In this document: in pieces, positions 40,565 to 53,706 of the stretch
Layout: every line of letters begins with the position of its first letter
Numbering within the stretch: position 1 is the first letter of the stretch
Source: Escherichia coli
GTDB taxonomy: Bacteria; Pseudomonadota; Gammaproteobacteria; Enterobacterales; Enterobacteriaceae
Length of the DNA stretch: 64,000 nt
Reading direction: 5' to 3' (one strand)
NCBI RefSeq assembly: GCF_003018235.1
Contig: NZ_CP027437.1
Made by a program: the position numbers and the translations under genes
The notes under the pieces: model-generated
What the model saw: only the letters and a program-made list of their open reading frames with translations
What the model was told of the DNA's origin: nothing
Databases searched by the model: none

Positions 40565-42024
40565 TGAAAAAATTACTGCGTCTTTTTTTCCCGCTCTCGC
40601 TGCGGGTACGTTTTCTGTTAGCAACGGCAGCAGTAGTATTGGTGCTTTCGCTTGCCTACGGAATGGTTGCGCTGATCGGTTATAGCGTCAGTTTCGATAA
40701 AACCACGTTTCGGCTGTTACGTGGCGAGAGCAATCTGTTCTATACCCTTGCGAAGTGGGAAAACAATAAGTTGCATGTCGAGTTACCCGAAAATATCGAC
40801 AAGCAAAGCCCCACTATGACGCTAATTTATGATGAGAACGGGCAGCTTTTATGGGCGCAACGTGACGTGCCCTGGCTGATGAAGATGATCCAGCCTGACT
40901 GGCTGAAATCGAATGGTTTTCATGAAATTGAAGCGGATGTTAACGATACCAGCCTCTTGCTGAGTGGAGATCATTCGATACAGCAACAGTTGCAGGAAGT
41001 GCGGGAAGATGATGACGACGCGGAGATGACCCACTCGGTGGCGGTAAACGTCTACCCGGCAACATCGCGGATGCCAAAGTTGACCATTGTGGTGGTGGAT
41101 ACCATTCCGGTGGAGCTAAAAAGTTCCTATATGGTCTGGAGCTGGTTTATCTATGTGCTCTCAGCCAATCTGCTGTTAGTGATCCCGCTGCTGTGGGTCG
41201 CCGCCTGGTGGAGTTTACGCCCCATCGAAGCCCTGGCAAAAGAAGTCCGCGAACTGGAAGAACATAACCGCGAATTGCTCAATCCAGCCACAACGCGAGA
41301 ACTGACCAGTCTGGTACGAAACCTGAACCGATTGTTAAAAAGTGAACGCGAACGTTACGACAAATACCGTACGACGCTCACCGACCTGACCCATAGTCTG
41401 AAAACGCCACTGGCGGTGCTGCAAAGTACGCTGCGTTCTCTGCGTAGTGAAAAGATGAGCGTCAGTGATGCTGAACCGGTAATGCTGGAGCAAATCAGCC
41501 GCATTTCACAGCAAATTGGCTACTACCTGCATCGTGCCAGTATGCGCGGCGGGACATTGCTCAGCCGCGAGCTGCATCCGGTCGCCCCACTGCTGGACAA
41601 TCTCACCTCGGCGCTGAACAAAGTGTATCAACGCAAAGGGGTCAATATCTCTCTCGATATTTCGCCAGAGATCAGCTTTGTCGGTGAGCAGAACGATTTT
41701 GTCGAGGTGATGGGCAACGTGCTGGATAATGCCTGTAAATATTGCCTCGAGTTTGTCGAAATATCTGCAAGGCAAACCGACGAGCATCTCTATATTGTGG
41801 TCGAGGATGATGGCCCCGGTATTCCATTAAGCAAGCGAGAGGTCATTTTCGACCGTGGTCAACGGGTTGATACTTTACGCCCTGGGCAAGGTGTAGGGCT
41901 GGCGGTAGCCCGCGAAATCACCGAGCAATATGAGGGTAAAATCGTCGCCGGAGAGAGCATGCTGGGCGGTGCGCGGATGGAGGTGATTTTTGGTCGCCAG
42001 CATTCTGCGCCGAAAGATGAATAA
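40564..42024 (+). CDS. phoQ: Sensor histidine kinase PhoQ
   Basis: 486-aa ORF with two TM segments, H-box and ATPase domain; overlaps the phoP stop. Confidence 0.95.
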
Positions 42025-42110
42025 ATATGTCCTTTTATCATTAAACACAACCAACCAATTGATTTAATTAAATAAATCTCACTACAGAAAGTGCCAAAAA
42101 TCGCAAATTG

Positions 42111-42131
42111 ACTACACCATTAACTACACCG
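42111..42131. repeat. 21-bp direct repeat ACTACACCATTAACTACACCG (candidate att core, left copy)
   Basis: Perfect copy at 53485..53505; imperfect similarity continues for ~40 bp to the right of both copies. Confidence 0.7.
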
Positions 42132-42286
42132 TTCGGTGCACTGTATGAAACAACGTGGAACAAATAGACACAAGAAATATATGGGCGGGTAATTTATCTA
42201 TGTGAAAGCGTGCCGACTAATAGGGCGTTAATGTCGATATGGGGATCCCCATATCGGGAACCATACCGGAATTTTTGCCAGGTTAA

Positions 42287-42409
42287 ATGTTAACCGCTGC
42301 CCTGTTAACATTTTTACCAAAAAGGTAGTTAACATTTTTTGCACGCAACCATATGAATCATAAAGACAAAATCAACAACAACGCTTCATCAGGCAGTTAA
42401 CATGTTAAC
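42287..42409. promoter_or_regulatory. Cluster of GTTAACAT / ATGTTAAC half-sites, including the 14-bp palindrome GTTAACATGTTAAC (candidate iterons/operators or packaging site)
   Basis: Motif at 42287..42294, 42304..42311, 42328..42335 and 42396..42409 in a gene-free ~0.8-kb terminal region. Confidence 0.4.
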
Positions 42410-42833
42410 TACTACAAAACGGTAATTTTTTCTCTGCGTGAGAGTGGGCGCGGTGTCCGAATTGTTCGTTGTTCGTGGCTAACCGCTCCCCCCCCTATAC
42501 CGGATTTTTTTCCGGTTAATCTTTAATCAGGCTGGTGGGGGTTACATACCCTTGATCACCGTAATGATGATTCAGGTATGCACCTTTCCCCCCGATGGGG
42601 TAAAAGCATCAACCGTAACGGTAATATCTGCCTTGATGGTCTGCGTGGTCATTATGACCATTCAGCCAATGACCTTAATCAGAATTTTTCGCTAAAAAAT
42701 GATGTTGGCCACGTCGTCCGGAAAGCACAAAATCCCGTCGATTTTTAATTAACGGTTAAACCGCCTTTTTGTCACGGTGTGTCACTGGTTGCCACTCACC
42801 GTCACGATGTCCGCTCGCCTGGCTGTAAATTAA

Positions 42834-42852
42834 ACTACGAAAATTTCGTAGT
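42834..42852. promoter_or_regulatory. 19-bp perfect palindrome ACTACGAAAATTTCGTAGT (followed by GGGACTACAAGTCCC palindrome)
   Basis: Read directly; lies upstream of the left-end hypothetical gene. Confidence 0.4.
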
Positions 42853-42925
42853 TGTGAGGGACTACAAGTCCCGCGCAAATTTCCCCCGGTCCCCTCAAAT
42901 TGAGGTTGCCGGAAATATCAACCAG

Positions 42926-43207
42926 TTACCGCCGTAACCGCTCCAGCTTCTTCCAGTGGTACGTAATTTTCTCTTTCTCCCGGTACATCTCAACGCGGCG
43001 ATTGTAGGCCAGCATTTCCAGAACGCGGATCCGTATGTCGCGCATATCTACATCGTTAAGCTGGATACCATCACGGCGCATCACCTCAGCAACCACACGC
43101 GCATAATTTTCAGCGGTCACGCTGTCCGGCTGCGTTGCCTGTTCGTCAGCCTGCTGGCTGATTCCTGCAACGCGGTGGATTAATCGCAGTATTTCGGCTT
43201 CTGTCAT
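42926..43207 (-). CDS. Hypothetical protein (93 aa)
   Basis: ORF 42926..43219; probable start ATG 43207 (MTEAEILRLIHRVAG...) with G-rich SD. Confidence 0.5.
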   Translation of the reverse strand: MTEAEILRLIHRVAGISQQADEQATQPDSVTAENYARVVAEVMRRDGIQLNDVDMRDIRIRVLEMLAYNRRVEMYREKEKITYHWKKLERLRR

Positions 43208-43241
43208 TGTGCCCCCCATCGTTCTAATCGTCTGGTGTCGT

Positions 43242-43295
43242 CGGGTCCTTCCTGGAATTATGGCCCGTTACGGGGCGGCGACCTCGCGGTTTTTC
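43242..43295. repeat. Inverted repeat, left arm (terminator-like hairpin plus T-run)
   Basis: Reverse complement of 43887..43940; the inner 32 bp are identical. Confidence 0.75.
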
Positions 43296-43521
43296 ACTAT
43301 TTATGAGATTTTTTAGGGGGTGGTTGTTGTTTAATTGTTTGTCATATCTATTTGATAACTAAGTAAAAATAGAGAGCAATACAACAACCTGATAGTGTTT
43401 TTTGATGCTACAAATAAAAAAAATGCTAATTGAATCAAATAGTTTTACAAAAATACGTGGTTGTTGTATTGCGTATTTGATGGCGTAACAGAAAGTGATT
43501 TTGAACTTTGCTGTTCTGTGA

Positions 43522-43731
43522 CTACTGATTGTTCCATGCTGGCGCGGCGAACGCTTCGGCATGACGCCCCCCAGCCAGAAAACCAGCCATTTTATTTCGT
43601 GCTTTGCTCACATCTTCCGGTGAGTAGCCGTAAATCTGTAAACCTTCATTGAATCGATGTTCTGTTTCTTCACTTGAGTACTCGTCGCTCTCCGATGAAA
43701 TCAGCCTGGCAACTTCAGTCTGCGTAGCCAC
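43522..43731 (-). CDS. Hypothetical acidic protein (69 aa)
   Basis: ORF inside the inverted-repeat-bounded cassette, downstream of CATGTCCGG repeats. Confidence 0.4.
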   Translation of the reverse strand: MATQTEVARLISSESDEYSSEETEHRFNEGLQIYGYSPEDVSKARNKMAGFLAGGRHAEAFAAPAWNNQ

Positions 43732-43753
43732 TCCTCACCTCACAATCACGACA

Positions 43754-43860
43754 AAACCGGTCATGTCCGGTTTACATGTCTATTTTTTGCGCATGTCCGG
43801 TTCATGGAAAGCCTATTTTTATATTTTTCATATAGTTAACTTGCAGAGAAACCGGACATG
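43754..43860. promoter_or_regulatory. Three copies of the CATGTCCGGTT(T) motif, including the 20-bp palindrome AAACCGGTCATGTCCGGTTT (candidate operators)
   Basis: 43754..43773, 43792..43806 and 43848..43860 (inverted). Confidence 0.45.
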
Positions 43861-43886
43861 GATCCCGGAAAATTTTCATAAATAGC

Positions 43887-43940
43887 GAAAAACCGCGAGG
43901 TCGCCGCCCCGTAACGGGTCCATATGCCGGAAAGGACCCG
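43887..43940. repeat. Inverted repeat, right arm; acts as minus-strand intrinsic terminator of the capsid operon
   Basis: Hairpins followed (on the minus strand) by a T-run, 30 bp after the stop of the 137-aa gene. Confidence 0.75.
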
Positions 43941-43969
43941 TAAAAAAGCCGGATTTCTCCGGCCTTGTC

Positions 43970-44383
43970 TCAGATGGTTTTCAGTATGCGATCGATGTCG
44001 CCGTCATCGCCCGGGTTTCTGCCATCGTATGCCATGCCAGCTGATACGGCTTGCGGGCTGTGCATGTCCATAAAGTTTTCAAAGGCTGCGGTAAGCTCTG
44101 GTGCAACCTTCAGGCGTTCCTGCTCTATGGTCATGCTAAGGATGCTTTTAGCCGTACCAACATCGATACAAGGCACGTTTGCCATTGCACGTAACAGCGG
44201 CTGATAGTCGCCAGATTCATCAAGCGCCATAATCGCATCAGAGCGCGGCTTGTCCTTCTCTTCCAGGCTGTTAAGTTGATATACGGCCTCGTAGGTTGAT
44301 AAACCTCTGTCAGCCATTGCCCGCGCTTCGGCCTTAAATTTACTCGCCAGCGGTAGCGTCATGATGCTTTCATTCGTTGCCAT
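43970..44383 (-). CDS. Hypothetical protein (137 aa), capsid-module associated
   Basis: ORF directly downstream of the decoration-like gene. Confidence 0.5.
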   Translation of the reverse strand: MATNESIMTLPLASKFKAEARAMADRGLSTYEAVYQLNSLEEKDKPRSDAIMALDESGDYQPLLRAMANVPCIDVGTAKSILSMTIEQERLKVAPELTAAFENFMDMHSPQAVSAGMAYDGRNPGDDGDIDRILKTI

Positions 44384-44395
44384 CGTTACCCCTGC

Positions 44396-44731
44396 TTATC
44401 GCGCCAGCGGCTGAACGGATACGCCAGAACCCGCAAAGGCGGCGCATTTTTTCGCGTCGGTGTCGACGCTCTCAGGCCAGTTTACAGCGGCGATATTGAA
44501 TATCCCCGCCTTGTAGCACTGTGCTGATTTCTGCTTTGACGTGTCCACGGGGTACGACGTCAGGTAAACAGCCTTGCCCGATTCCTGACCATCCCACGGT
44601 TTAAACTCGCCATTGTCCGCCAGCATCAGCGGGGTAAATTCCTGAATAACGCCAGCATCAGCGGCAAAATGTACCAGCGTCGTGGCGACCTGCTGACTGC
44701 CTGCAAATAACTCAATGTATGGAGTGTCCAT
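44396..44731 (-). CDS. Lambda gpD-like head decoration protein
   Basis: 111 aa; aligns to recalled lambda gpD (TPLMLxxxxxxxxxWDG..., xYKxGxF, WPE, KKxxAFAGxxxS). Confidence 0.7.
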   Translation of the reverse strand: MDTPYIELFAGSQQVATTLVHFAADAGVIQEFTPLMLADNGEFKPWDGQESGKAVYLTSYPVDTSKQKSAQCYKAGIFNIAAVNWPESVDTDAKKCAAFAGSGVSVQPLAR

Positions 44732-44742
44732 AGAATTCCCCG

Positions 44743-45798
44743 TTAACCAATTTTGACGGTAACAAATTTGCGAATATCTGCCGGTACCGGCTGCGGTGCG
44801 CTGTGTGTCTGCACGTACTCAATCGCCGGATCGCCGTCTTCAATCCAGTTTTTCGGGTAGAACATGTTTTGCGTTGCGCCCGTTCTTACCGCTTCCTGAT
44901 CCATAATCGCACCATAGGCCACCAGCCCTTTATTGTTGGTGTTACCCAGGACCAGCAAATCAGGCTCAAGGAAATATTTTTCGGTGCCGTCGCTGTCAGT
45001 GTATTTGCCGGAATAGACGATAAGGGCCAGATCACCAAGATAGCCTTTAAAGCTCACCACTTCGCCCAGGTTTTTACAGGCCAGTTCGGCGGCGGATTCT
45101 GAACCACGGGAAAGATCGTACAGCTCACGGAATTTTTTAAAGCTGCGTAATGTGCGCCATACCTCAGCGCCCATAATCATGACGTTTGCGGGGCAACCAG
45201 CCTGATCAGCATAAAGCTCGATGTCATAGATTGGGTCGTGCATGTCTTTATCCTGCTCGGACCATTTTTTACCATTGGCCTGCTCTATGATGCAGTTTTC
45301 CGGTATTTTCCAGTCGATTTCATAGCGTTCTATGCCTTCGCCCTCAATGATGTTTTTTCCGGTCGTTACCGCATTCACCGCCAGCCATTCCACGCGTGCC
45401 TTAATGGCGTTTATCTGGCGGCGCACGTTGCCAGTAATCAGGCGCATGCGTCGGTATGTAGGGTCGTTAAGCTGTGCCGGATCTTCTCCAGCCATGCGCA
45501 TGATGGTTTTTGTTGGATCGATTTCATGCTTTGGCTTCATGTAGCCGGGTTTAATCGTGCTGGTTTCGTACCCTTTATCGCGCTGGACATGGCTACCCAC
45601 CATAGGCGAACAGAACGCTGACATCGTAACCTCTTCAATGTCCAGGGTGTCCAGCATGATGCTTTGGGTGTTGAAGGTCGCCACGTTCGGGAAAAACAGC
45701 GTGGTAAACAGCGGACTGAATTTAAATTCAGCAATATCCCCGCGATTCAGGTACGCGAAAAGCTGGTTAGTGTTAAGTGCCGTTGCTTTTCCTGCCAT
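44743..45798 (-). CDS. Lambda gpE-like major capsid protein
   Basis: 351 aa; conserved blocks KFxFxPLF, TPGYxKPKHE, DPxYRRxR, YPKNWxxxGDP relative to recalled lambda gpE. Confidence 0.8.
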   Translation of the reverse strand: MAGKATALNTNQLFAYLNRGDIAEFKFSPLFTTLFFPNVATFNTQSIMLDTLDIEEVTMSAFCSPMVGSHVQRDKGYETSTIKPGYMKPKHEIDPTKTIMRMAGEDPAQLNDPTYRRMRLITGNVRRQINAIKARVEWLAVNAVTTGKNIIEGEGIERYEIDWKIPENCIIEQANGKKWSEQDKDMHDPIYDIELYADQAGCPANVMIMGAEVWRTLRSFKKFRELYDLSRGSESAAELACKNLGEVVSFKGYLGDLALIVYSGKYTDSDGTEKYFLEPDLLVLGNTNNKGLVAYGAIMDQEAVRTGATQNMFYPKNWIEDGDPAIEYVQTHSAPQPVPADIRKFVTVKIG

Positions 45799-46004
45799 TA
45801 TTCACCCCCATGAGTCTGATTCATGCCCAGCGCCGCGCGTAAATAGGCGCGTACCTGCCAGCCTGTTGACGGCTCAACCATCGCCAGCGGATCAAGTCCT
45901 GCCGCAATGCCTGCTTTTACGTTCTGCTGGTGGCGTTCCTTGAGCGCCTCCACGATGTCGGGGCTTATGTACACCGAAACACCGCCTTTTTTCTCTTCTG
46001 CCAT
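45798..46004 (-). CDS. Hypothetical protein (68 aa) upstream of the capsid gene
   Basis: ORF with start/stop overlap with the capsid gene. Confidence 0.4.
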   Translation of the reverse strand: MAEEKKGGVSVYISPDIVEALKERHQQNVKAGIAAGLDPLAMVEPSTGWQVRAYLRAALGMNQTHGGE

Positions 46005-46166
46005 TGGTTGAAATTCCTCTTTAACAAAAAAAACATAACTGGATGAAAATCCAGTTGTGATTATAATTGTGATTGCACTTTGTGCAACGATATTGAGTTA
46101 TATTGCAAATTATGAAATGATTATCCCGATCATGTGTGTCAGTGCACCAAAAAAAACTCATATGCA

Positions 46167-46207
46167 AAAGCCCGATAAGACCCCTCTGACCTTATCGGGC
46201 TTTTTTA
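46167..46207. terminator. Bidirectional intrinsic terminator between replication and capsid modules
   Basis: Stem gcccgataag/cttatcgggc with TTTTTT on the plus strand and a T-run on the minus strand. Confidence 0.55.
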
Positions 46208-46409
46208 TCTGTCGGCAAAGACATCGAACAAAAATTAATCACAATCATCATCTTTTTTTCATCAATGCGATTAAAAACAATAAATTACGCTCATGATGAT
46301 GATGACGATAAAACCACAAAAATGCGCTTTTTTCCGCGCCACCCGTCCCGTGGATGGTCCCGCCAGCCAGGAGGACCCATAAAAAAGCCGGATTGCTCCG
46401 GCTCTGCTC

Positions 46410-46682
46410 TCACTTCTGCGGGTAGTTGCGCCATATTGTTTTCCCTATACCATCTATCCCCATTTGTTTTTCAGTGCGATCAACCGACCGTTTCAGCGCG
46501 CCAAAACCATCCGGCGGCTCCGGTGGCCTCTGTGCCTTCCTGGAACATTCCAGCCGTCGCATTGCCACCTGTGCGCGTTCCTTGTCTGTCTCCACCAGCT
46601 GCATGACTTCACCCCATCGCGCGGCCGCCCTCCGGTAAAAGCCTTTCGACTCGAGTTCCTCCGCTATGCGGTCATGTACCAT
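46410..46682 (-). CDS. PerC-like transcriptional activator
   Basis: ORF 46410..46802; probable start ATG 46682 (strong SD, 10 nt after the SSB stop); motif GFYRRAAARWGEVM resembles the PerC RGLWRRAADLW motif. Confidence 0.5.
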   Translation of the reverse strand: MVHDRIAEELESKGFYRRAAARWGEVMQLVETDKERAQVAMRRLECSRKAQRPPEPPDGFGALKRSVDRTEKQMGIDGIGKTIWRNYPQK

Positions 46683-46692
46683 CCTCACCCCC

Positions 46693-47103
46693 TCAGAACG
46701 GAATACCATCACCGTAAGGGTCATCGCCTCCCGCTGGTGGCTGATTACCCTGTGTGCCTGTGGTTGTGCGTCGGCTCCCGCCAGGACGTGCCGTACGGGC
46801 ACTGATTACGCTGTCTGCAATGACCTGATAACCCTGCCGCGTTTCGCCGTTCTGTCCGGTCCACTGGCTTACCTGCATGTTACCCGCCACGCTCACCAGT
46901 TCGCCTTTGTGGTGTTTTGCCAGTGCGTCGGCCTGTCTGCCAAACGCCAGGACGGATAACCACATCGTCGCCGTTCCGTCATCTGTCTGGCTGCATGGCA
47001 GGGGAACCGCCATACTCGCCATCGCCATTTGTGTCCCTTTGCTGGTGGTCTTTAACTGCGGGTCAGCCACCAGCCGTCCGTAAGCCGCTATCTGTGCTGT
47101 CAT
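46693..47103 (-). CDS. Single-stranded DNA-binding protein (SSB-like)
   Basis: 136 aa; OB-fold-like N-terminus and C-terminal acidic tail ...DDPYGDGIPF (SSB signature DDDIPF). Confidence 0.7.
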   Translation of the reverse strand: MTAQIAAYGRLVADPQLKTTSKGTQMAMASMAVPLPCSQTDDGTATMWLSVLAFGRQADALAKHHKGELVSVAGNMQVSQWTGQNGETRQGYQVIADSVISARTARPGGSRRTTTGTQGNQPPAGGDDPYGDGIPF

Positions 47104-47342
47104 GCTGTCTGCTCTCCGGTTTTAACGTTGATGGTTGTTACCTGTTCCGCTTCGGCAATCTCCCGTTCTGTCAGCGTGGCAAAGTTTGCGGCCGCTGTGG
47201 TCATGAATGCGCTTATCAGTTCTGGATGTTCCTTCGCGTATCCTTCCCGCGTGTGGCGGTCGATGATTTTTATCGCCACCCTCAGCCAGTGTTCTGTAAG
47301 GTCAATGGCGCGGTGATCTGTCTTTTTGTGGCTTACCTTCAT
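47100..47342 (-). CDS. Hypothetical protein (80 aa)
   Basis: 4-nt overlap with the SSB start. Confidence 0.45.
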   Translation of the reverse strand: MKVSHKKTDHRAIDLTEHWLRVAIKIIDRHTREGYAKEHPELISAFMTTAAANFATLTEREIAEAEQVTTINVKTGEQTA

Positions 47343-47345
47343 GAT

Positions 47346-47669
47346 TTACTCCAGGGTACCGCTATTGCTGCAGTCGTTAACCGGATACCAGGCAAATACC
47401 CATGACTCACCGCAGTGAACAAACTTCTTATCTGGCAGATAAAGGCACTCGAACATTCCCTCATCAGGACTATGCGGACTCACGCCAAGCTCACTGGTCA
47501 GCACGGGTAAGATTTCGCGGTAAGTATCCCCAGTGCCGAAATGGTTGACCTCACAAAGCGCCCATGCAGCAATTGGGCTATACCATTCCGTGCCGTCGTC
47601 GTCTTTGAACTTCGCCCACCAGCCAGGAAGGGCGGTTGATAAGCTCAGTGTTTCAATTTCAGATTTCAT
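47346..47669 (-). CDS. Hypothetical protein (about 107 aa)
   Basis: ORF 47346..47714; start placed at MKSEIETL. Confidence 0.45.
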   Translation of the reverse strand: MKSEIETLSLSTALPGWWAKFKDDDGTEWYSPIAAWALCEVNHFGTGDTYREILPVLTSELGVSPHSPDEGMFECLYLPDKKFVHCGESWVFAWYPVNDCSNSGTLE

Positions 47670-47915
47670 AAATTCACCTTCTGTATTTTGTCCTGCTGTT
47701 CGATTTTTATTCATTACTCACCACTCCTCACTTTTACTCCTCACTTTTTAAGTTGCCTCACTTCGTCTCACTTGAGATTTTCGTGTTTTCTATTAATTTG
47801 TTTTATAAGATTTTTTTCACTCCTCACTTTTGAGGATGTATACAGGTGAGAAAGTGAGTAATTGTGTTAATATTTTGTAAAAACCTCACCGTTACTCACT
47901 TTTGCTACTCACTTT

Positions 47916-49325
47916 TTACAGTGGTCCTACATCATCACCATCAATGTAAATCACGGCGTCTTTTTCCAGTTTGGCTAACCATCGCCGCATATTTTTCACG
48001 TCATACCCAAGCCGTTTCATGTCATCACGTAACAGCGCAATAGTGCACTTGTCGCCGTTCTGTGTGCGTGAACGTATGCACCCCCATAGCGCGGTATGGT
48101 TTTCCGTCTTGTTGCCTGCCTCCTCGATGCGCTCCAGTTCAACAGGAGGACGCGGCTTATCCACCACCACCAGCGACGTGATTAATTCGCCGTCAGCGTC
48201 GGTAAAAAGCTCCACTACCCGCAAATCGTAGGCGGCTTCTTTGAGTTCCTCTGCGTCCTTCATTTTTGTGCATGAGATAACCAGGGCTTCGCTTCCTGCG
48301 TCCTCTCTGCGTATCCGGTATTCAGCGTCCAGTGATGCACGGAATGCACTGGAACCACGCGCGCCCTTTGTTTCATCTTTGCCGGAATGGTGAACCACCA
48401 GCACCGTGGACCCTGTGCGTCGTTTCAGTTCGTCACATCCACGGATAAACGCCCCCATGTCACGGGAGTCATTTTCATCATTGCCGCCAAAGCAACGCGC
48501 CAGCGTATCCAGAATAATCATTCGAACAGGTTTACCCGTTTCCCGCTCCACCTGGCTGGCTGCGATAACCATTTCATCAACATCAAGCGGGGCCGCCGGA
48601 AAGACCGGACGGTTTACCAGATACAGATTTTTCACCTGTACATCGTGCACAACCTCCCAGGCTTTTATGCGACGCGGAACGCCTATACCACCTTCACCAA
48701 CCACATAGAGAACAGAACCATGTGCAACCCTGCGGCCTCCCCAGTGGCGGCCCGTTGAAATGTGACACGCCCACGAACCAGCAAGAAACGATTTATAGGA
48801 TCCGCTCGCTCCGTATATGCTGCACAGCGACGCCGCCGGAATAATGCCCTTAACCACGTAATCCAGTTGCGTGTCATATCCGGTAGATCCAACGCTCATC
48901 GGTAGCGTGGTGTTTCGTTGGGGGTTTTTTGCCATTACCAGGCTTTCCCCTCTCTCCCATGTCTCCCGCAACCGTGGTAGCTGGTCGGTCCATTTCTCCA
49001 GCAATTCGAAATTTTCAGAAAGCAGTCGCGCTTCCCTGACTCCGGCAATCGCCAGTTTCGTCGCGATGGTTAGCAACTGCTCTTCGTCAATATTTCCGGC
49101 GCGTATCACTGTGACCCTGTGCCGCCCCTCATCAACAATTTGCAGATTATCCAGTTCGCTTAACTGATAACGGCCCAGGTAAACGGGAGGCGTCGGGTCT
49201 CCCGCCTTTTTGGCCTGTGCAACGATGTAATGCTCTGCAAATGAGTGAGCATCAACACCCGCGAAAATAATCGCGTCGGTGTACTTATCTTTCGGTAATA
49301 GTTTTACGTTCGGTGCCAGTTTCAT
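47916..49325 (-). CDS. Replication protein with RecA-fold (RepA/AAA_25-type) helicase core, Pri-Rep-like
   Basis: 469 aa; Walker A-like GASGSYKS, Walker B-like MIILDTLAR, SGKDETKGARGSSA motif typical of RepA-type helicases of satellites and plasmids. Confidence 0.7.
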   Translation of the reverse strand: MKLAPNVKLLPKDKYTDAIIFAGVDAHSFAEHYIVAQAKKAGDPTPPVYLGRYQLSELDNLQIVDEGRHRVTVIRAGNIDEEQLLTIATKLAIAGVREARLLSENFELLEKWTDQLPRLRETWERGESLVMAKNPQRNTTLPMSVGSTGYDTQLDYVVKGIIPAASLCSIYGASGSYKSFLAGSWACHISTGRHWGGRRVAHGSVLYVVGEGGIGVPRRIKAWEVVHDVQVKNLYLVNRPVFPAAPLDVDEMVIAASQVERETGKPVRMIILDTLARCFGGNDENDSRDMGAFIRGCDELKRRTGSTVLVVHHSGKDETKGARGSSAFRASLDAEYRIRREDAGSEALVISCTKMKDAEELKEAAYDLRVVELFTDADGELITSLVVVDKPRPPVELERIEEAGNKTENHTALWGCIRSRTQNGDKCTIALLRDDMKRLGYDVKNMRRWLAKLEKDAVIYIDGDDVGPL

Positions 49326-49621
49326 TTTTTACCCCTGAATCCGTTAATCATGTTTTTCATCTTCTGAATATTGGCGCGGGCCTTCTCCCTGCTGGTGGGC
49401 TGGCTGCGTTGCGCTGCCTGTACCAGAGAAAAATCACGCCGGAACTGATAAACAGGCATCACGCAGTCATATTCGTAGCCTTCACGGCGGTAGGTTACGC
49501 GCCGTTCCTCCACGCCCTTGATCATTACCGTGCCGCCGTACTGGTCGCGGTAAATATCCCCGCGCATGAATTTAGTGCGAGTTTTGCCGCTGGCAGTTAA
49601 GCCAGAATATTTAAGTTTCAT
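49322..49621 (-). CDS. Hypothetical basic protein (99 aa)
   Basis: 4-nt overlap with the replication gene start. Confidence 0.45.
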   Translation of the reverse strand: MKLKYSGLTASGKTRTKFMRGDIYRDQYGGTVMIKGVEERRVTYRREGYEYDCVMPVYQFRRDFSLVQAAQRSQPTSREKARANIQKMKNMINGFRGKK

Positions 49622-49626
49622 TATTT

Positions 49627-50109
49627 TTATTCTCCGGTGTGGGGCGTTTTATTCTGTTCGCGTAATAACTCTTTTTCTCTTAAATTGAATTCAGCTACGT
49701 AATCGGCATAATCAGCGGTAATATTCAGTACATCCACTCCCGTTGCTTTATATTCTTTCATACCAAGTAAGAAAAAAGATGCCCTTATCAGTTCCGATAT
49801 TGATGAAAGCGCATCAGTCGCATCATCGGATAATCCTGAAAATTCCTGTTTCAGGGCATTAAAACGATCATCACGCATAACCCCCCCATTTTCACAATCA
49901 GCAATCAGGATAGCTTTGGCCTCATTCAGTGCCATATCAGCGGTAAGCTGTGCGTATGCCAGTGAATGCGGGATTATTGCCCCGGTATATTCCGTCTCTC
50001 TGGTAATGTGTTTTTCTGCGGTTGCTGCCGTGCATGAAATATCAATCAGCGCGTGCATTAGCGTTCTGATAGCTTCGGCGGCTGCGTCCGGACGGATGTT
50101 ATTGCACAT
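49627..50109 (-). CDS. Hypothetical protein (160 aa)
   Basis: ORF in the leftward operon. Confidence 0.45.
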   Translation of the reverse strand: MCNNIRPDAAAEAIRTLMHALIDISCTAATAEKHITRETEYTGAIIPHSLAYAQLTADMALNEAKAILIADCENGGVMRDDRFNALKQEFSGLSDDATDALSSISELIRASFFLLGMKEYKATGVDVLNITADYADYVAEFNLREKELLREQNKTPHTGE

Positions 50110-50716
50110 GTATCACCCCCTGACGAATACGGGCGGCGAATACAGCAACACAACCAGACGGGCAACGGCTACGCGCTTCGCGTTCCGTCCAGGCGGTGAC
50201 GTGGATGATTTGGGATTCTGACGCGCAAAAGATGATAAAGCGCCAGATAAAGGCAGTTTGAGAATGTACGAGGGTAGGGATAGTAGCCATGTTGGCAGCC
50301 TCCTTTATCGTTGGGATAACCCCACCGCCGGAGGTGGTAAGCTCGCTGGCGGTGGACTGTACGGAGTTACCACAACTGGCGATAAAGGAAACCAGCCCGA
50401 CCGAAGTCGGCCCCGTACAGCCCACCATTGTAAAGGTGTGCGTGTGCGCCGATACAAAAAAAGACGCGTGCGGCGTCTGTATCGCCTTTATCTCCAGCGG
50501 GGTGGTAATCCCGGCACCCGTTTTATGAGGTGCACGGGAATCATAGCCATTTCCACCAGTGGCGATCAACTGGTTTTTCTGGCGAGCTTCCTGTTCGCTG
50601 GTGGCCTCAATGGTAATCACGCGCGGTTGTGCCGTGCTCAGGGCGATAAAACGCCAGATGTATTTATTCAGGTTGTACGAGCCCCGCCCTTGCGGGTGTG
50701 TGGTATGATTTCTCAT
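50099..50716 (-). CDS. Uncertain ORF spanning a tandemly duplicated ~0.4-kb module
   Basis: Frame open from ATG 50716 (GAGG SD) to stop 50099; a second SD plus ATG at 50290 inside; DNA-level paralogy between ~50221..50340 and ~50619..50750. Confidence 0.3.
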   Translation of the reverse strand: MRNHTTHPQGRGSYNLNKYIWRFIALSTAQPRVITIEATSEQEARQKNQLIATGGNGYDSRAPHKTGAGITTPLEIKAIQTPHASFFVSAHTHTFTMVGCTGPTSVGLVSFIASCGNSVQSTASELTTSGGGVIPTIKEAANMATIPTLVHSQTAFIWRFIIFCASESQIIHVTAWTEREARSRCPSGCVAVFAARIRQGVIHVQ

Positions 50717-50813
50717 AGCTACCTCGATACTCTGGTTATCGTTGGTGGTTAGACGCCCTGCATGTGTTGCGAGCACTGCGGGGCGTTGCTTAATTTGAGT
50801 AACACCACTCAAA

Positions 50814-50895
50814 CTGTGCGCACAGATTAAAATTATGTATGCGCACACATCAATACTTAACATCTCGTTTTTTTTGCTGTATTGTGTGCGCCCAT
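50814..50895. promoter_or_regulatory. Operator cluster between divergent operons: palindrome CTGTGCGCACAG plus two related TGTGCGC sites
   Basis: 50814..50825 perfect 12-bp palindrome; 50835..50850 near-palindrome; about 50883..50893 third copy. Confidence 0.5.
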
Positions 50896-50921
50896 AAAGT
50901 CCATTTAAGTAAGGTGCATCA

Positions 50922-51119
50922 ATGTCTAGCGGTAACACAAACAACAAATCAGCAAAGAAAAATATTCGATTCCCACATGAGCTTATAGATGGAATTGATG
51001 CCAGCGTTGAACAAGAAAAATTAACTAATCCTAGTGCTAATTTTTCCGCATGGGTCTTGGATGCCTGTGGACGCAAATTAAAATATGAACAGCGCCGCAA
51101 GGCCAAAGAATCAGAATAA
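50922..51119 (+). CDS. Small ribbon-helix-helix-type DNA-binding protein (candidate island repressor)
   Basis: 65 aa; KKNIRFPHELIDGIDA...FSAWVLDACGRKL pattern; divergent from the replication operon. Confidence 0.5.
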   Translation: MSSGNTNNKSAKKNIRFPHELIDGIDASVEQEKLTNPSANFSAWVLDACGRKLKYEQRRKAKESE

Positions 51120-51176
51120 TTACTATCAGCGCCGTGGTGTGAGGTACTCCGGCGCATTGCTTTACAGGTACACACA

Positions 51177-51401
51177 ATGACCAAAGGCACATCATCACCG
51201 GAAAACGGCGAAATTACGCCAACATATGAAATTATCCGGCAAAGGCAGTCAGAAGCCTGCGCCAGACTTGAGGAAGAACTAACCAGAACAAAAATACCAC
51301 CAGCGCCGCGCTTAGCGCCACCAGAAAAATTTGCCCTTGAAGATTTTGTCGAGAAATACCCACGGCGGCTTAAATCTGGTAAAAACCGCCCGCCAGGCTG
51401 A
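51177..51401 (+). CDS. Hypothetical protein (74 aa)
   Basis: ORF downstream of the RHH gene. Confidence 0.4.
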   Translation: MTKGTSSPENGEITPTYEIIRQRQSEACARLEEELTRTKIPPAPRLAPPEKFALEDFVEKYPRRLKSGKNRPPG

Positions 51402-51665
51402 TAGCATTGTCCACCAGCAATAGAACGGTTATCATGCTCTGGCTTATGTTTGGGATCACATACACATAAGGTGCAGCGGGTTAATTGTTCAGAAAGGCGG
51501 TTCCATTTCGGGGCCGCTTTTTTTATGCCTGAAAAACCCCAATTTTGTTGTTTTCCAGTCTCACCAGGGCGAACGAATCCCCGCCCACATTCGGGCGCAT
51601 ATTCAATCTTCATGGTTATATCTCTGTATTAGTGGATGTGTGGCGGCTGCGTGCCGCCAGCGTGA

Positions 51666-51854
51666 TTAATGAACTGCCTTGCAGCTATCCTTCCAGGCCA
51701 GAACCTCGGATAAAGACCAGCCAACGGAACGACCGCCAAGTTTACGACGTGATGGGAATTGTCCGGCCTTTTCCAGGCGGTAGCGGCATGAGCGGCTAAG
51801 GCCTGTTAGCTTTTCGCATTCTTTTTCACGTATAAACCGATCAGTGCTTAACAC
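51666..51854 (-). CDS. AlpA-family excisionase / transcriptional activator
   Basis: 62 aa; LTGLSRSCRYRLEKAGQFPSRRKLGGRSVGWSLSEVLAW matches the AlpA helix-turn-helix pattern. Confidence 0.7.
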   Translation of the reverse strand: MLSTDRFIREKECEKLTGLSRSCRYRLEKAGQFPSRRKLGGRSVGWSLSEVLAWKDSCKAVH

Positions 51855-52228
51855 TATTGCCCCCTTTCGTTTCTTAAAGAGTTATTTCGTGTTCTATTGC
51901 GTTGGGATGTGTCTGATTGTGTCAGGATGATTCAGAGTTGGCAAATGTTGAGGTCGTATGGTTTACAGAAAGAGGAACAATCAGGATAAAATCATTTAAA
52001 TTCATGTTAATACAAAGGCATAAAATCTCGTTTTATGCCTTTTTTCTCACGTGTTAAAGCGTTATTCGCTAATGTATAAAAAACCAGTCACACAAATAAA
52101 ATCAGTCACTTATAAACCTGCGTACTTTTTCGCCTCTTGTTCGTGGTTGTTCCACGTTGTTTCACATTGTTCGCCGTTGTATCTGTGTGCTTATCCAGTA
52201 TGCGCATACTGAAAAAACACGAAAAAAA

Positions 52229-53476
52229 TTATTTTCTTCTGGCTGCTGGTAGTGCGGTTACGTTTTCTTGTGTTCCCGCCAGTATCCCTAACCGCTCCGT
52301 CCACATATCCAGCGCATTGCGTTTAGCATCCAGATAACGGGAATGATTATAAACTCGCTGCATTCCTGGCATCTGGTGGCCTGTAAGCTGCTCCACGACG
52401 TGAGGATCCACGCCTAAATCGTTCAGCATCGTTGTAAAGGTGCGCCGGATGTCATGTAGTGACCAGTGAGGGTGATTTAGCCTCCTGTGCGCTAATCTGC
52501 CGTACTGCGACACGCTTGTTTCCTGTTTCACTTCCCCCAGCAATAAGCCCGTGTTCCTGTTCTGCTCCACCAGCTGCGTGACGAACGGCAGTATTGCTTC
52601 CGGTATGGGCCGGAATATTGCCACCTTCGTTTTGCTGTGTTCTTTCGGCACGGTCCAGAGCATTTCGGTAAAATCCCACTCTCTGATCTCCGATAACCTC
52701 AGTTCTACCGTCCGGCATCCGAACACAATCAGGAGGCGGATTAACGCGATGTAGTAAGGGGAAAATATTTTTTTGTCCAGTGCCTGCAATAATTCGCCCA
52801 GTTCTTTGGTGCTTAAGACACGCTCGCTTATATCCGGTTTTTTCCCAACGTCCGCCACACTCATATCATCAAGAACGTTGCTGATTGCATAGCGCCGCCT
52901 CCTGCAGAACTTAAGCGCCTGTTTGCACGTCTGTAGCAAGAATCCGGCAGTAACAGGCGTTCGCTTTGCCACCTGGTCAAAACAGGCCAGCCAGTGCCGT
53001 AGCTCGCATTTATCCAGCGGCATAGCACCAATGTGCTGTATTACGTGATTATTAAGGCGCTTTTTCAGGGCGGCATAATCCACGCGATTTTCCTTTGCGT
53101 ACGACTCAAGCCAGTAGGTGAGCGCATCGCCAACCGTTACCGGCTTTAACGCTTCCTGTACGGTGTAATTCATTTCATGACGTGGATTTTTCCCCTCTGC
53201 CAGCCATGCGCGACACTGGGCGGCTTTTTCCCTGGCTGATTTCAGGCTCAGATCAGGATAATTTCCCAGCTTAATGCGTTCCGGTGGTGCCCCCCTTCCC
53301 GTTCCGGCCCTGTAAGTGAAATACCAGGTTAAAAGGCCACTGGTTGAATGCCTGACGCTCAGGTTTCCACCGTCATTAAGAAAGGCTGTTTTTTGGGCGG
53401 GTGTGCCGTTGATTTTCCTCAGCTGTGTATCGCTCAGTTTGTTAAGTGCTCTGCTCATAATTTTGATTCCGGTCAT
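52229..53476 (-). CDS. Tyrosine site-specific integrase (P4-type)
   Basis: ORF 52229..53479; R...HxxR...Y catalytic-region motifs (HDIRRTF, GHQMPGMQRVYNHSRY); adjacent to the right repeat. Confidence 0.8.
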   Translation of the reverse strand: MTGIKIMSRALNKLSDTQLRKINGTPAQKTAFLNDGGNLSVRHSTSGLLTWYFTYRAGTGRGAPPERIKLGNYPDLSLKSAREKAAQCRAWLAEGKNPRHEMNYTVQEALKPVTVGDALTYWLESYAKENRVDYAALKKRLNNHVIQHIGAMPLDKCELRHWLACFDQVAKRTPVTAGFLLQTCKQALKFCRRRRYAISNVLDDMSVADVGKKPDISERVLSTKELGELLQALDKKIFSPYYIALIRLLIVFGCRTVELRLSEIREWDFTEMLWTVPKEHSKTKVAIFRPIPEAILPFVTQLVEQNRNTGLLLGEVKQETSVSQYGRLAHRRLNHPHWSLHDIRRTFTTMLNDLGVDPHVVEQLTGHQMPGMQRVYNHSRYLDAKRNALDMWTERLGILAGTQENVTALPAARRK

Positions 53477-53484
53477 CACAATTA

Positions 53485-53505
53485 ACTACACCATTAACTA
53501 CACCG
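53485..53505. repeat. 21-bp direct repeat ACTACACCATTAACTACACCG (candidate att core, right copy)
   Basis: Identical to 42111..42131; preceded by an extra ATTAACTACACC unit. Confidence 0.7.
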
Positions 53506-53706
53506 ATCGTTGCACAAAGGGCTACAACGTGAAACAAGCTGGAACAAGGAAAATCACAAACCTGTTTATAATCAAAAACATAATGAACAATCTGAAACAT
53601 TATGAAACGGCAAAAAACACTAATTGATAAAATATGTCCATACTTCACGCATTACGTTAAGCATCCGTTATAATCGGTTGCAGATACCAGCCTGTGGATG
53701 CTTAAC

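Follow-up and report, generated by a model that had tools for sequence, protein, structure and literature searches.

The 11.6-kb island in the phoQ-roxA spacer is a phage satellite, namely a phage-inducible chromosomal island (PICI) of the EcCICFT073 type. The outer of the two nested direct-repeat pairs at its ends is the crossover site, and the att core is not ambiguous. We consider it highly probable that the PICI was inserted by its own integrase through a crossover in the outer repeat and that the inner 21-mers are candidate arm sites of attP. The result for the core is ordinary and known, and the part that concerns the arm sites represents a modest extension of a known kind. All coordinates refer to the window, the whole stretch of 64,000 nucleotides of Escherichia coli DNA that was analysed.

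Crossover site in the phoQ-roxA spacer

The inner pair is defined by a 21-mer, ACTACACCATTAACTACACCG, with two exact copies in the window (42111-42131 and 53485-53505; 0 of 100 shuffles). It is composed of two 12-nt units in tandem, ATTRACTACACC, that is, ATT(G/A)ACTACACC. Similarity between the two copies spans 75 nt at 76% identity (42106-42180 against 53480-53554). The perfect pair, its tandem build and the weaker similarity that extends rightwards from each copy had all been described in the initial annotation, and each of these points was confirmed. The outer copies are TGAATAAATATGTCC at 42018-42032 and TGATAAAATATGTCC at 53625-53639, which differ at two adjacent positions. Their identical block is the 10-mer AAATATGTCC, present on the plus strand at 42023-42032 (attL) and 53630-53639 (attR), and the left block shares bases with the TAA stop codon of phoQ (42022-42024). 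The same annotation had located the outer pair and its overlap with the phoQ stop correctly; the sequence was mis-transcribed, with one difference between the copies instead of two adjacent ones.

Comparison with unoccupied phoQ-roxA sequences, the check proposed in advance, gives a clear answer and thereby resolves the ambiguity of the att core. An uninterrupted phoQ..AAATATG(T/C)CC..roxA junction is present in 4,820 of 5,426 complete E. coli genomes. The exact 41-nt attB occurs with the T allele (TATGTCC) in 3,688 of these complete genomes and with the C allele (TATGCCC) in 1,132, and the site is occupied in about 540-580 genomes. In the empty-site genomes, homology to the left flank stops at 42032 and homology to the right flank resumes at 53630; the K-12 sequence at this point reads ...GATGAATAAATATGCCCATACTTCACG... 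(K-12 locus L001, 597-612). Every empty site joins at the outer core and matches the outer pair exactly. The choice between the two pairs had been presented as undecidable from the window alone, and empty sites matching neither of them had been named as a refutation; the empty sites match the outer pair. A synthetic sequence recombined through the inner repeat was found in none of the 5,426 complete E. coli genomes.

Published work on EcCICFT073 leads to the same core. Its reported core at ycfD-phoQ, GGACATATTT (Fillol-Salom et al. 2018 ISME J, Table S1; PMC6092414), is the reverse complement of AAATATGTCC in the window, and the same core block is marked in att alignments from the Williams laboratory. 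At the CFT073 locus (L006), attL, attR and the flanks are the same as in the window. Excision, circularisation and int-attP-dependent integration of EcCICFT073 have been demonstrated experimentally (PMC6092414). The assignment of the core crossover is already published, and it is a settled question, not a new discovery.

The attP sequences used here were reconstructed from integrated ends, and direct evidence for attP comes only from the EcCICFT073 literature. The outer-type excised attP junction was absent from the viral contigs and from the metagenome contigs searched, the inner-type excised junction was absent from the viral contigs searched, and a 708-nt reconstructed attP had no match among phage records. 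The attB overlap is polymorphic in E. coli, where the K-12 allele TATGCCC mismatches attP at overlap position 5. Integration of EcCICFT073 int-attP in DH5alpha has been reported despite this allele. Either the heterology of the K-12 allele is tolerated, or the placement of the overlap is slightly off. An island of the tRNA-targeting kind was also considered and rejected, as the window contains no tRNA gene.

Gene content and the integrase start

The body of the PICI extends from 42033 to 53632, with an overlap-to-overlap distance of 11,607 bp. A tyrosine integrase of 409 aa with an N-terminal arm-DNA-binding domain is encoded at 52229..53458 on the minus strand. It matches Pfam PF13356 (Arm-DNA-bind_3; residues 8-95, 65 bits against a cut-off of 27) and PF00589 (Phage_integrase; 59 bits against a cut-off of 27.1), as well as PHROG 1 integrase. 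An AlpA-family regulator or excisionase of 62 aa (51666..51854, minus strand; Pfam PF05930, PHROG excisionase) and a RepA-type helicase gene (47916-49325, minus strand, with its stop codon at 47916-47918) are also present. Other genes of the island encode an SSB, PerC, an Ash-domain protein, a lambda E-like major capsid protein and a head decoration protein. The int, alpA, RepA helicase, SSB, PerC, capsid and decoration genes all lie on the minus strand within the 11.6 kb, and no tail or lysis families were matched within the island.

Two lambda-type cos sequences, exact matches to GTTACGGGGCGGCGACCTCGC, lie in opposite orientation at 43267-43287 (plus) and 43895-43915 (minus) and correspond to CFT073 cos.1 and cos.2 (PMC6092414 supplement). 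The idea that the inner repeat might itself be a cos site was rejected, since the lambda-type cos sequences are located elsewhere. The island thus combines the features of PICI membership, namely a unidirectional int-alpA-replication module, a size within about 10-15 kb, the ycfD-phoQ att core and lambdoid-type cos. Helper-phage-dependent induction, excision and transfer have been shown for EcCICFT073 (PMC6092414). None of the complete E. coli genomes has exactly the mosaic present in the window: the best match spans 82% of its length at about 89% identity, and identities are about 89-91%.

Two further observations concern the body of the island. A 504-aa ORF at 50099-51613 (minus strand) carries an Ash domain at residues 357-451 and has repressor-like PHROG hits. 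Because it is far longer than the short icd-like or ash genes that relatives carry in this position, it could represent a fusion or a new regulator. Three direct repeats of ~24 nt, TTTTACTCCTCACTTTTTAAG-like and spaced by 83-85 bp, occur at 47717-47923. They overlap the 3' end of the RepA-type helicase gene, continue downstream of it and resemble replication-origin iterons.

The longest integrase ORF starts at GTG 53479, and annotated homologues are mostly 409 aa long (406-412 across the set). In the EcCI042 lineage, the upstream sequence diverges. Both the homologue lengths and this divergence place the int start at ATG 53458, which sits 26 nt from the first octamer of the inner repeat. An earlier placement of the integrase start within 10 bp of that repeat consequently holds for the longest ORF only. 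It had further been argued that a boundary at the inner pair would leave the int promoter outside of the element; this concern vanishes because the 174 bp that precede int (53459-53632) are part of the element. A sigma-70 consensus scan found no promoter upstream of int, nor at the left end of the island.

Organization of attP and its relatives at other sites

Related elements occupy six further chromosomal sites, where the identity blocks are GGGATAT at allC-allE, TGCTGTTAT at tqsA (EcCI042), TCACGATATT at smrA-abgR, ATCCGCTATT at yifB, ATAACTATCAT at clpS-cspD and ATACGGGTATTTCTT at thiM-rcnR. The ACTACACC octamers are kept at both ends in five of these six sites, and the thiM-rcnR lineage has the related ACCACACA. 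The DNA lying between the two repeat pairs of the window is likewise carried by relatives at other sites. Since the octamers and the between-pair DNA move with the element while the cores differ, the inner repeat belongs to the element.

The attP sequence was reconstructed for 14 elements. In the island of the window, the core-type half-site C, TGATAAAA (53625..53632, plus strand), directly adjoins the overlap on the int side, as the outermost bases of the element there. Half-site C', TTTTATCA (42033..42040, plus strand), adjoins the overlap at the left end, again as outermost element bases, and is the reverse complement of TGATAAAA. In the reconstructed core, TGATAAAA-TATGTCC-TTTTATCA, two perfectly inverted 8-bp repeats enclose a 7-bp spacer. 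Half-site C is near-invariant at all seven sites regardless of attB, reading TGATAAAA, TTATAAAA, TGATAAAT or TGAGAAAA. Across the seven attB sites, every identity block includes the 7 bp directly after TGATAAAA, and the allC-allE block consists of just those 7. Based on this comparison and on empty-site homology, the overlap in the window is therefore placed at TATGTCC, which for annotation purposes fixes the island boundaries at 42026-42032 (attL) and 53633-53639 (attR).

The inner repeat is a tandem octamer, ACTACACC-N4-ACTACACC, with a 12-bp period, present once per attP arm in the same orientation. In the P' arm, the doubled motif ATTGACTACACC-ATTAACTACACC (42107..42130, plus strand; octamers at 42111-42118 and 42123-42130) starts 82 bp from the overlap centre. 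The P arm carries ATTAACTACACC-ATTAACTACACC (53481..53504, plus strand; octamers at 53485-53492 and 53497-53504), which ends 132 bp from the overlap centre. Both are candidate arm-type Int sites. A second repeat class, a candidate for binding by AlpA as directionality factor or regulator, appears as TGAAACAA-CG-TGGAACAA in the P' arm (42146..42163, plus strand). In the P arm it spans 53530..53610 on the plus strand, with TGAAACAA at 53530-37 and TGGAACAA at 53540-47, followed by a core-proximal cluster of TGAACAAT (53584-91), TGAAACAT (53593-600) and TGAAACGG (53603-10). These GAACAA-type repeats adjoin the octamers in both arms, which accounts for the imperfect similarity to the right of the inner copies.

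An IHF site is suggested, as a consensus match only, by WATCAANNNNTTR at 42052..42064 (minus strand), in the stretch that separates the core from the P' doubled motif. Four of eight lineages have the IHF consensus at this position, +23 from the overlap centre. A putative third arm site at 42081 (ACTACAGA) was rejected, as relatives show a CACT-N6-7-AGTG inverted repeat there and no octamer. In the window, this small inverted repeat takes the form CACT-N6-AGTG at 42080-42093, flanked by the IHF-like site and the P' doubled motif, and the CACT-N6-7-AGTG repeat is kept in the phoQ, allC and most tqsA lineages. A perfect 22-bp palindrome, CGATATGGGGATCCCCATATCG, lies at 42235-42256, about 105 bp inside of the P' doubled motif; it is kept with small changes in relatives at the phoQ, allC and tqsA sites.

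The spacing of these elements is fixed. In 13 elements, the island of the window and 12 relatives, 132 bp separate the overlap centre from the end of the int-side motif, and 81-82 bp separate it from the start of the far-side motif. The corresponding values in the thiM-rcnR lineage, which is more distant, are 133 and 80 bp in the ACCACACA register. When 12 reconstructed attPs from six sites are aligned, the octamers stand out as the four longest stretches without any change, and variability peaks in the seven columns of the overlap.

In the reading that we favour, the island was inserted by its own tyrosine integrase into the phoQ-roxA intergenic attB. Strand exchange takes place inside the outer repeat, across the 7-bp overlap TATGTCC that the inverted TGATAAAA and TTTTATCA flank in attP. 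Integration then splits the arms, so that the doubled-octamer copies land just inside attR and attL; this separation explains why the inner copies look like a second nested direct-repeat pair. The four octamers would most likely be bound by the N-terminal arm-binding domains of an integrase tetramer, and the adjoining GAACAA-type repeats most likely by AlpA. Int binding at the int-proximal copy, 26 nt upstream of the int start, may additionally autoregulate int. An outer-core crossover predicts the excised-circle junction ...TGATAAAATATGTCCTTTTATCA..., with attP reading ...CACTAATTGATAAAATATGTCCTTTTATCATTAAAC... and the restored attB reading ...GATGAATAAATATGTCCATACTTCACG....

Comparisons among relatives also touch on how targets and satellite types vary. 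The element of E. coli AR_0085 at allC-allE (L004) and that of the window have integrases that are 94% identical and different attB sites, and the differences between their attPs are confined to the 7-bp overlap and, on the C' side, about 25 bp. This comparison suggests target switching by replacement of a core segment. The element of E. coli AR_0013 at phoQ-roxA (L002) and the tqsA element of L012 are capsid-forming PICIs with terminase, portal, protease, capsid and connector. As they use the same integrase, core and arm motifs as the EcCICFT073-type elements, the integration module is common to these satellite types. A scan of 100,044 species-representative genomes for ACTACACC-N4-ACTACACCGNTCG gave one match, a chance occurrence in a GC-rich coding region of a MAG, and the doubled motif was not seen outside E. 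coli PICIs in this collection. A full-text literature search for the doubled ACTACACC motif returned no relevant paper.

Motif assignment, rival explanations and known systems

The sequence of the doubled motif varies together with one strand of the Int N-domain. The strand VRHSTSGLL accompanies ATTR-ACTACACC at five sites, including clpS-cspD, which overall is only 75-80% identical. VKYLTSGKL is found with ARTG-ACTACACC at tqsA, IKHSKGGKL with ACTG-ACCACACA at thiM-rcnR, and IRVSTKGAV with GCAATACA in the HE-PICI 11capE. Each change of octamer or unit shows in both arms, which are 10-15 kb apart when integrated. The GAACAA class tracks the AlpA type, with TGRAACAA accompanying the 62-aa AlpA (type A) and CGAACAA the 69-74-aa AlpA (type B). 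Int type 1 occurs together with AlpA type B in the clpS-cspD lineage, and in the tqsA lineage the Int type is changed but AlpA is not. Because these two lineages mix Int and AlpA types, the two motif classes separate cleanly. Such sequence comparisons favour arm-type Int sites for the octamers and AlpA sites for the GAACAA repeats. The covariation of motif and Int is based on four or five lineages. Part of it could be co-inheritance, given the physical linkage of the int N-terminus to the P-arm copy, but the P' arm lies far away and changes in concert, which argues against this. The inner pair had been taken for a possible att boundary, and the option that the evidence favours, arm-type sites of attP, had not been considered.

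Several alternative explanations of the inner repeats deserve attention. The inner 21-mer could be the real or an alternative crossover, for instance of a smaller element nested in DNA of an earlier insertion. In that case, 42033-42110 and 53506-53629 would be chromosomal or remnant DNA, and the circle junction would read ...CACAATTAACTACACCATTAACTACACCGTTCGGTGCACTG.... The inner pair is indeed longer and more perfect than the outer one (21 exact bases against 10) and close to the int start, but all empty sites join at the outer core, the inner-repeat junction is missing from all 5,426 genomes, the between-pair stretches travel to six other attB sites, and the published core is the outer one. 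This explanation is already effectively refuted, with next to no probability left to it. Scarcely more credible, at a very low probability, is that the repeats are non-functional leftovers of tandem satellite integration followed by deletion, or of recombination between elements. Different satellites, both EcCICFT073-type and capsid-forming PICIs, do use the same int and att, and mosaicism is extensive. However, the octamers are the most conserved attP bases across lineages with otherwise diverged arms, and their distance to the overlap varies by no more than 1 bp among 13 elements; neutral leftovers would keep neither the spacing nor the invariance.

A third alternative accepts the doubled ACTACACC motif as a functional arm element of attP and assigns it to AlpA or another accessory protein instead of the Int N-domain. 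AlpA-family proteins can bind direct repeats in att arms and act there as directionality factors, a capability that speaks for this assignment. In addition, Williams and co-workers left undecided which protein binds the corresponding motif of HE-PICIs (PMC10111431). We nonetheless regard this alternative as unlikely, although clearly less so than the two preceding ones. EcCI042-type and phoQ-type elements share the AlpA WP_000953272 (loci L005, L007 and L012), and the EcCI042-type 12-mer unit is changed in both arms (an AGTG instead of an ATTA flank) alongside a changed Int N-domain. The clpS-cspD lineage has the other AlpA type, yet its ACTACACC motif and Int strand are unchanged. Finally, it is the GAACAA repeats, not the octamers, that vary with AlpA type. 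Crossover in the outer repeat, with the inner 21-mers as candidate arm-type Int sites, is thus the reading that we retain.

Beyond the window, we lean towards the view that a doubled-motif attP with 81/132-bp spacing is a general design of the E. coli PICI integrase family, a view that covers the seven chromosomal attB sites and the one HE-PICI examined. The octamer would co-evolve with the Int N-domain and the GAACAA repeats with AlpA, and target switching would proceed mainly via the 7-bp overlap and the adjacent C' side, leaving the arms and ~94% of the integrase sequence unchanged. If this is true, the doubled motif is assigned to Int rather than to AlpA, a question left open in the literature, and these integrases are naturally modular and possibly retargetable. 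With a different octamer, the recently described HE-PICI attP architecture extends to the EcCICFT073 clade and to the capsid-forming PICIs that share its integrase. The assignments of octamers to the Int N-domain and of GAACAA repeats to AlpA are testable. For annotation of similar islands, a longer and more perfect inner direct repeat can mislead when the integrase uses arm-type sites.

One of the closest known systems is EcCICFT073. It shares with the window the insertion site ycfD/roxA-phoQ, the core (GGACATATTT, equivalent to AAATATGTCC), the 62-aa AlpA type, an integrase that is 95-98% identical by domain, the gene order int-alpA-...-replication-ssb-perC-capsid-decoration, the two lambda-type cos, and doubled ACTACACC motifs at both ends at equal distances. 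Differences lie in the mosaic body of the window, which has a RepA-type helicase where CFT073 has a primase, and in the 504-aa Ash-domain ORF of the window. The published description of EcCICFT073 (PMC6092414) gives the 10-bp core only and does not mention arm repeats.

The arms resemble those of HE-PICIs. The HE-PICI attP (PMC10111431, section 19) has a doubled octamer, tgTGTATTGCantgTGTATTGCa, with an 8+4+8 layout; its two copies point the same way and lie 81+/-2 and 132+/-2 bp away from the attP centre. In that report, the doubled motif was described as absent from other PICIs. The HE-PICI motif TGTATTGC (GCAATACA in the orientation of the window) was confirmed in 11capE of NRG857c. Both systems have one tandem octamer of 12-bp period per arm, at 81-82 and 132 bp here, with the 132-bp copy on the int side. 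They differ in the octamer itself, ACTACACC here and GCAATACA in HE-PICIs, and in the integrase N-domain. The target of HE-PICIs is a prophage late gene, whereas that of the window is the chromosomal phoQ-roxA spacer. The element in the window appears to work like an HE-PICI attP but is not an HE-PICI.

A further comparison is with the lambda-type complex attP of lambda, P2, P4 and HP1, in which heterobivalent tyrosine integrases use arm-type and core-type sites, alongside sites for IHF and Xis. Common features are an integrase with arm-binding and catalytic domains, inverted core sites that flank a 7-bp overlap, arm repeats unrelated to the core on both arms, and candidate sites for IHF and a directionality factor. 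The int gene of P4 lies directly next to attP, and the element in the window is P4-like in that its candidate arm sites overlap the region upstream of int. Lambda has the arm sites P1, P2 and P'1-3; the arrangement found here differs in the sequence of the candidate arm sites and in having two of them per arm, tandem and co-oriented, at 81 and 132 bp from the centre. With heterobivalent-type integrase domains, inverted core sites around a 7-bp overlap and arm repeats at fixed distances, the island between phoQ and roxA carries the features of a lambda-type attachment site.
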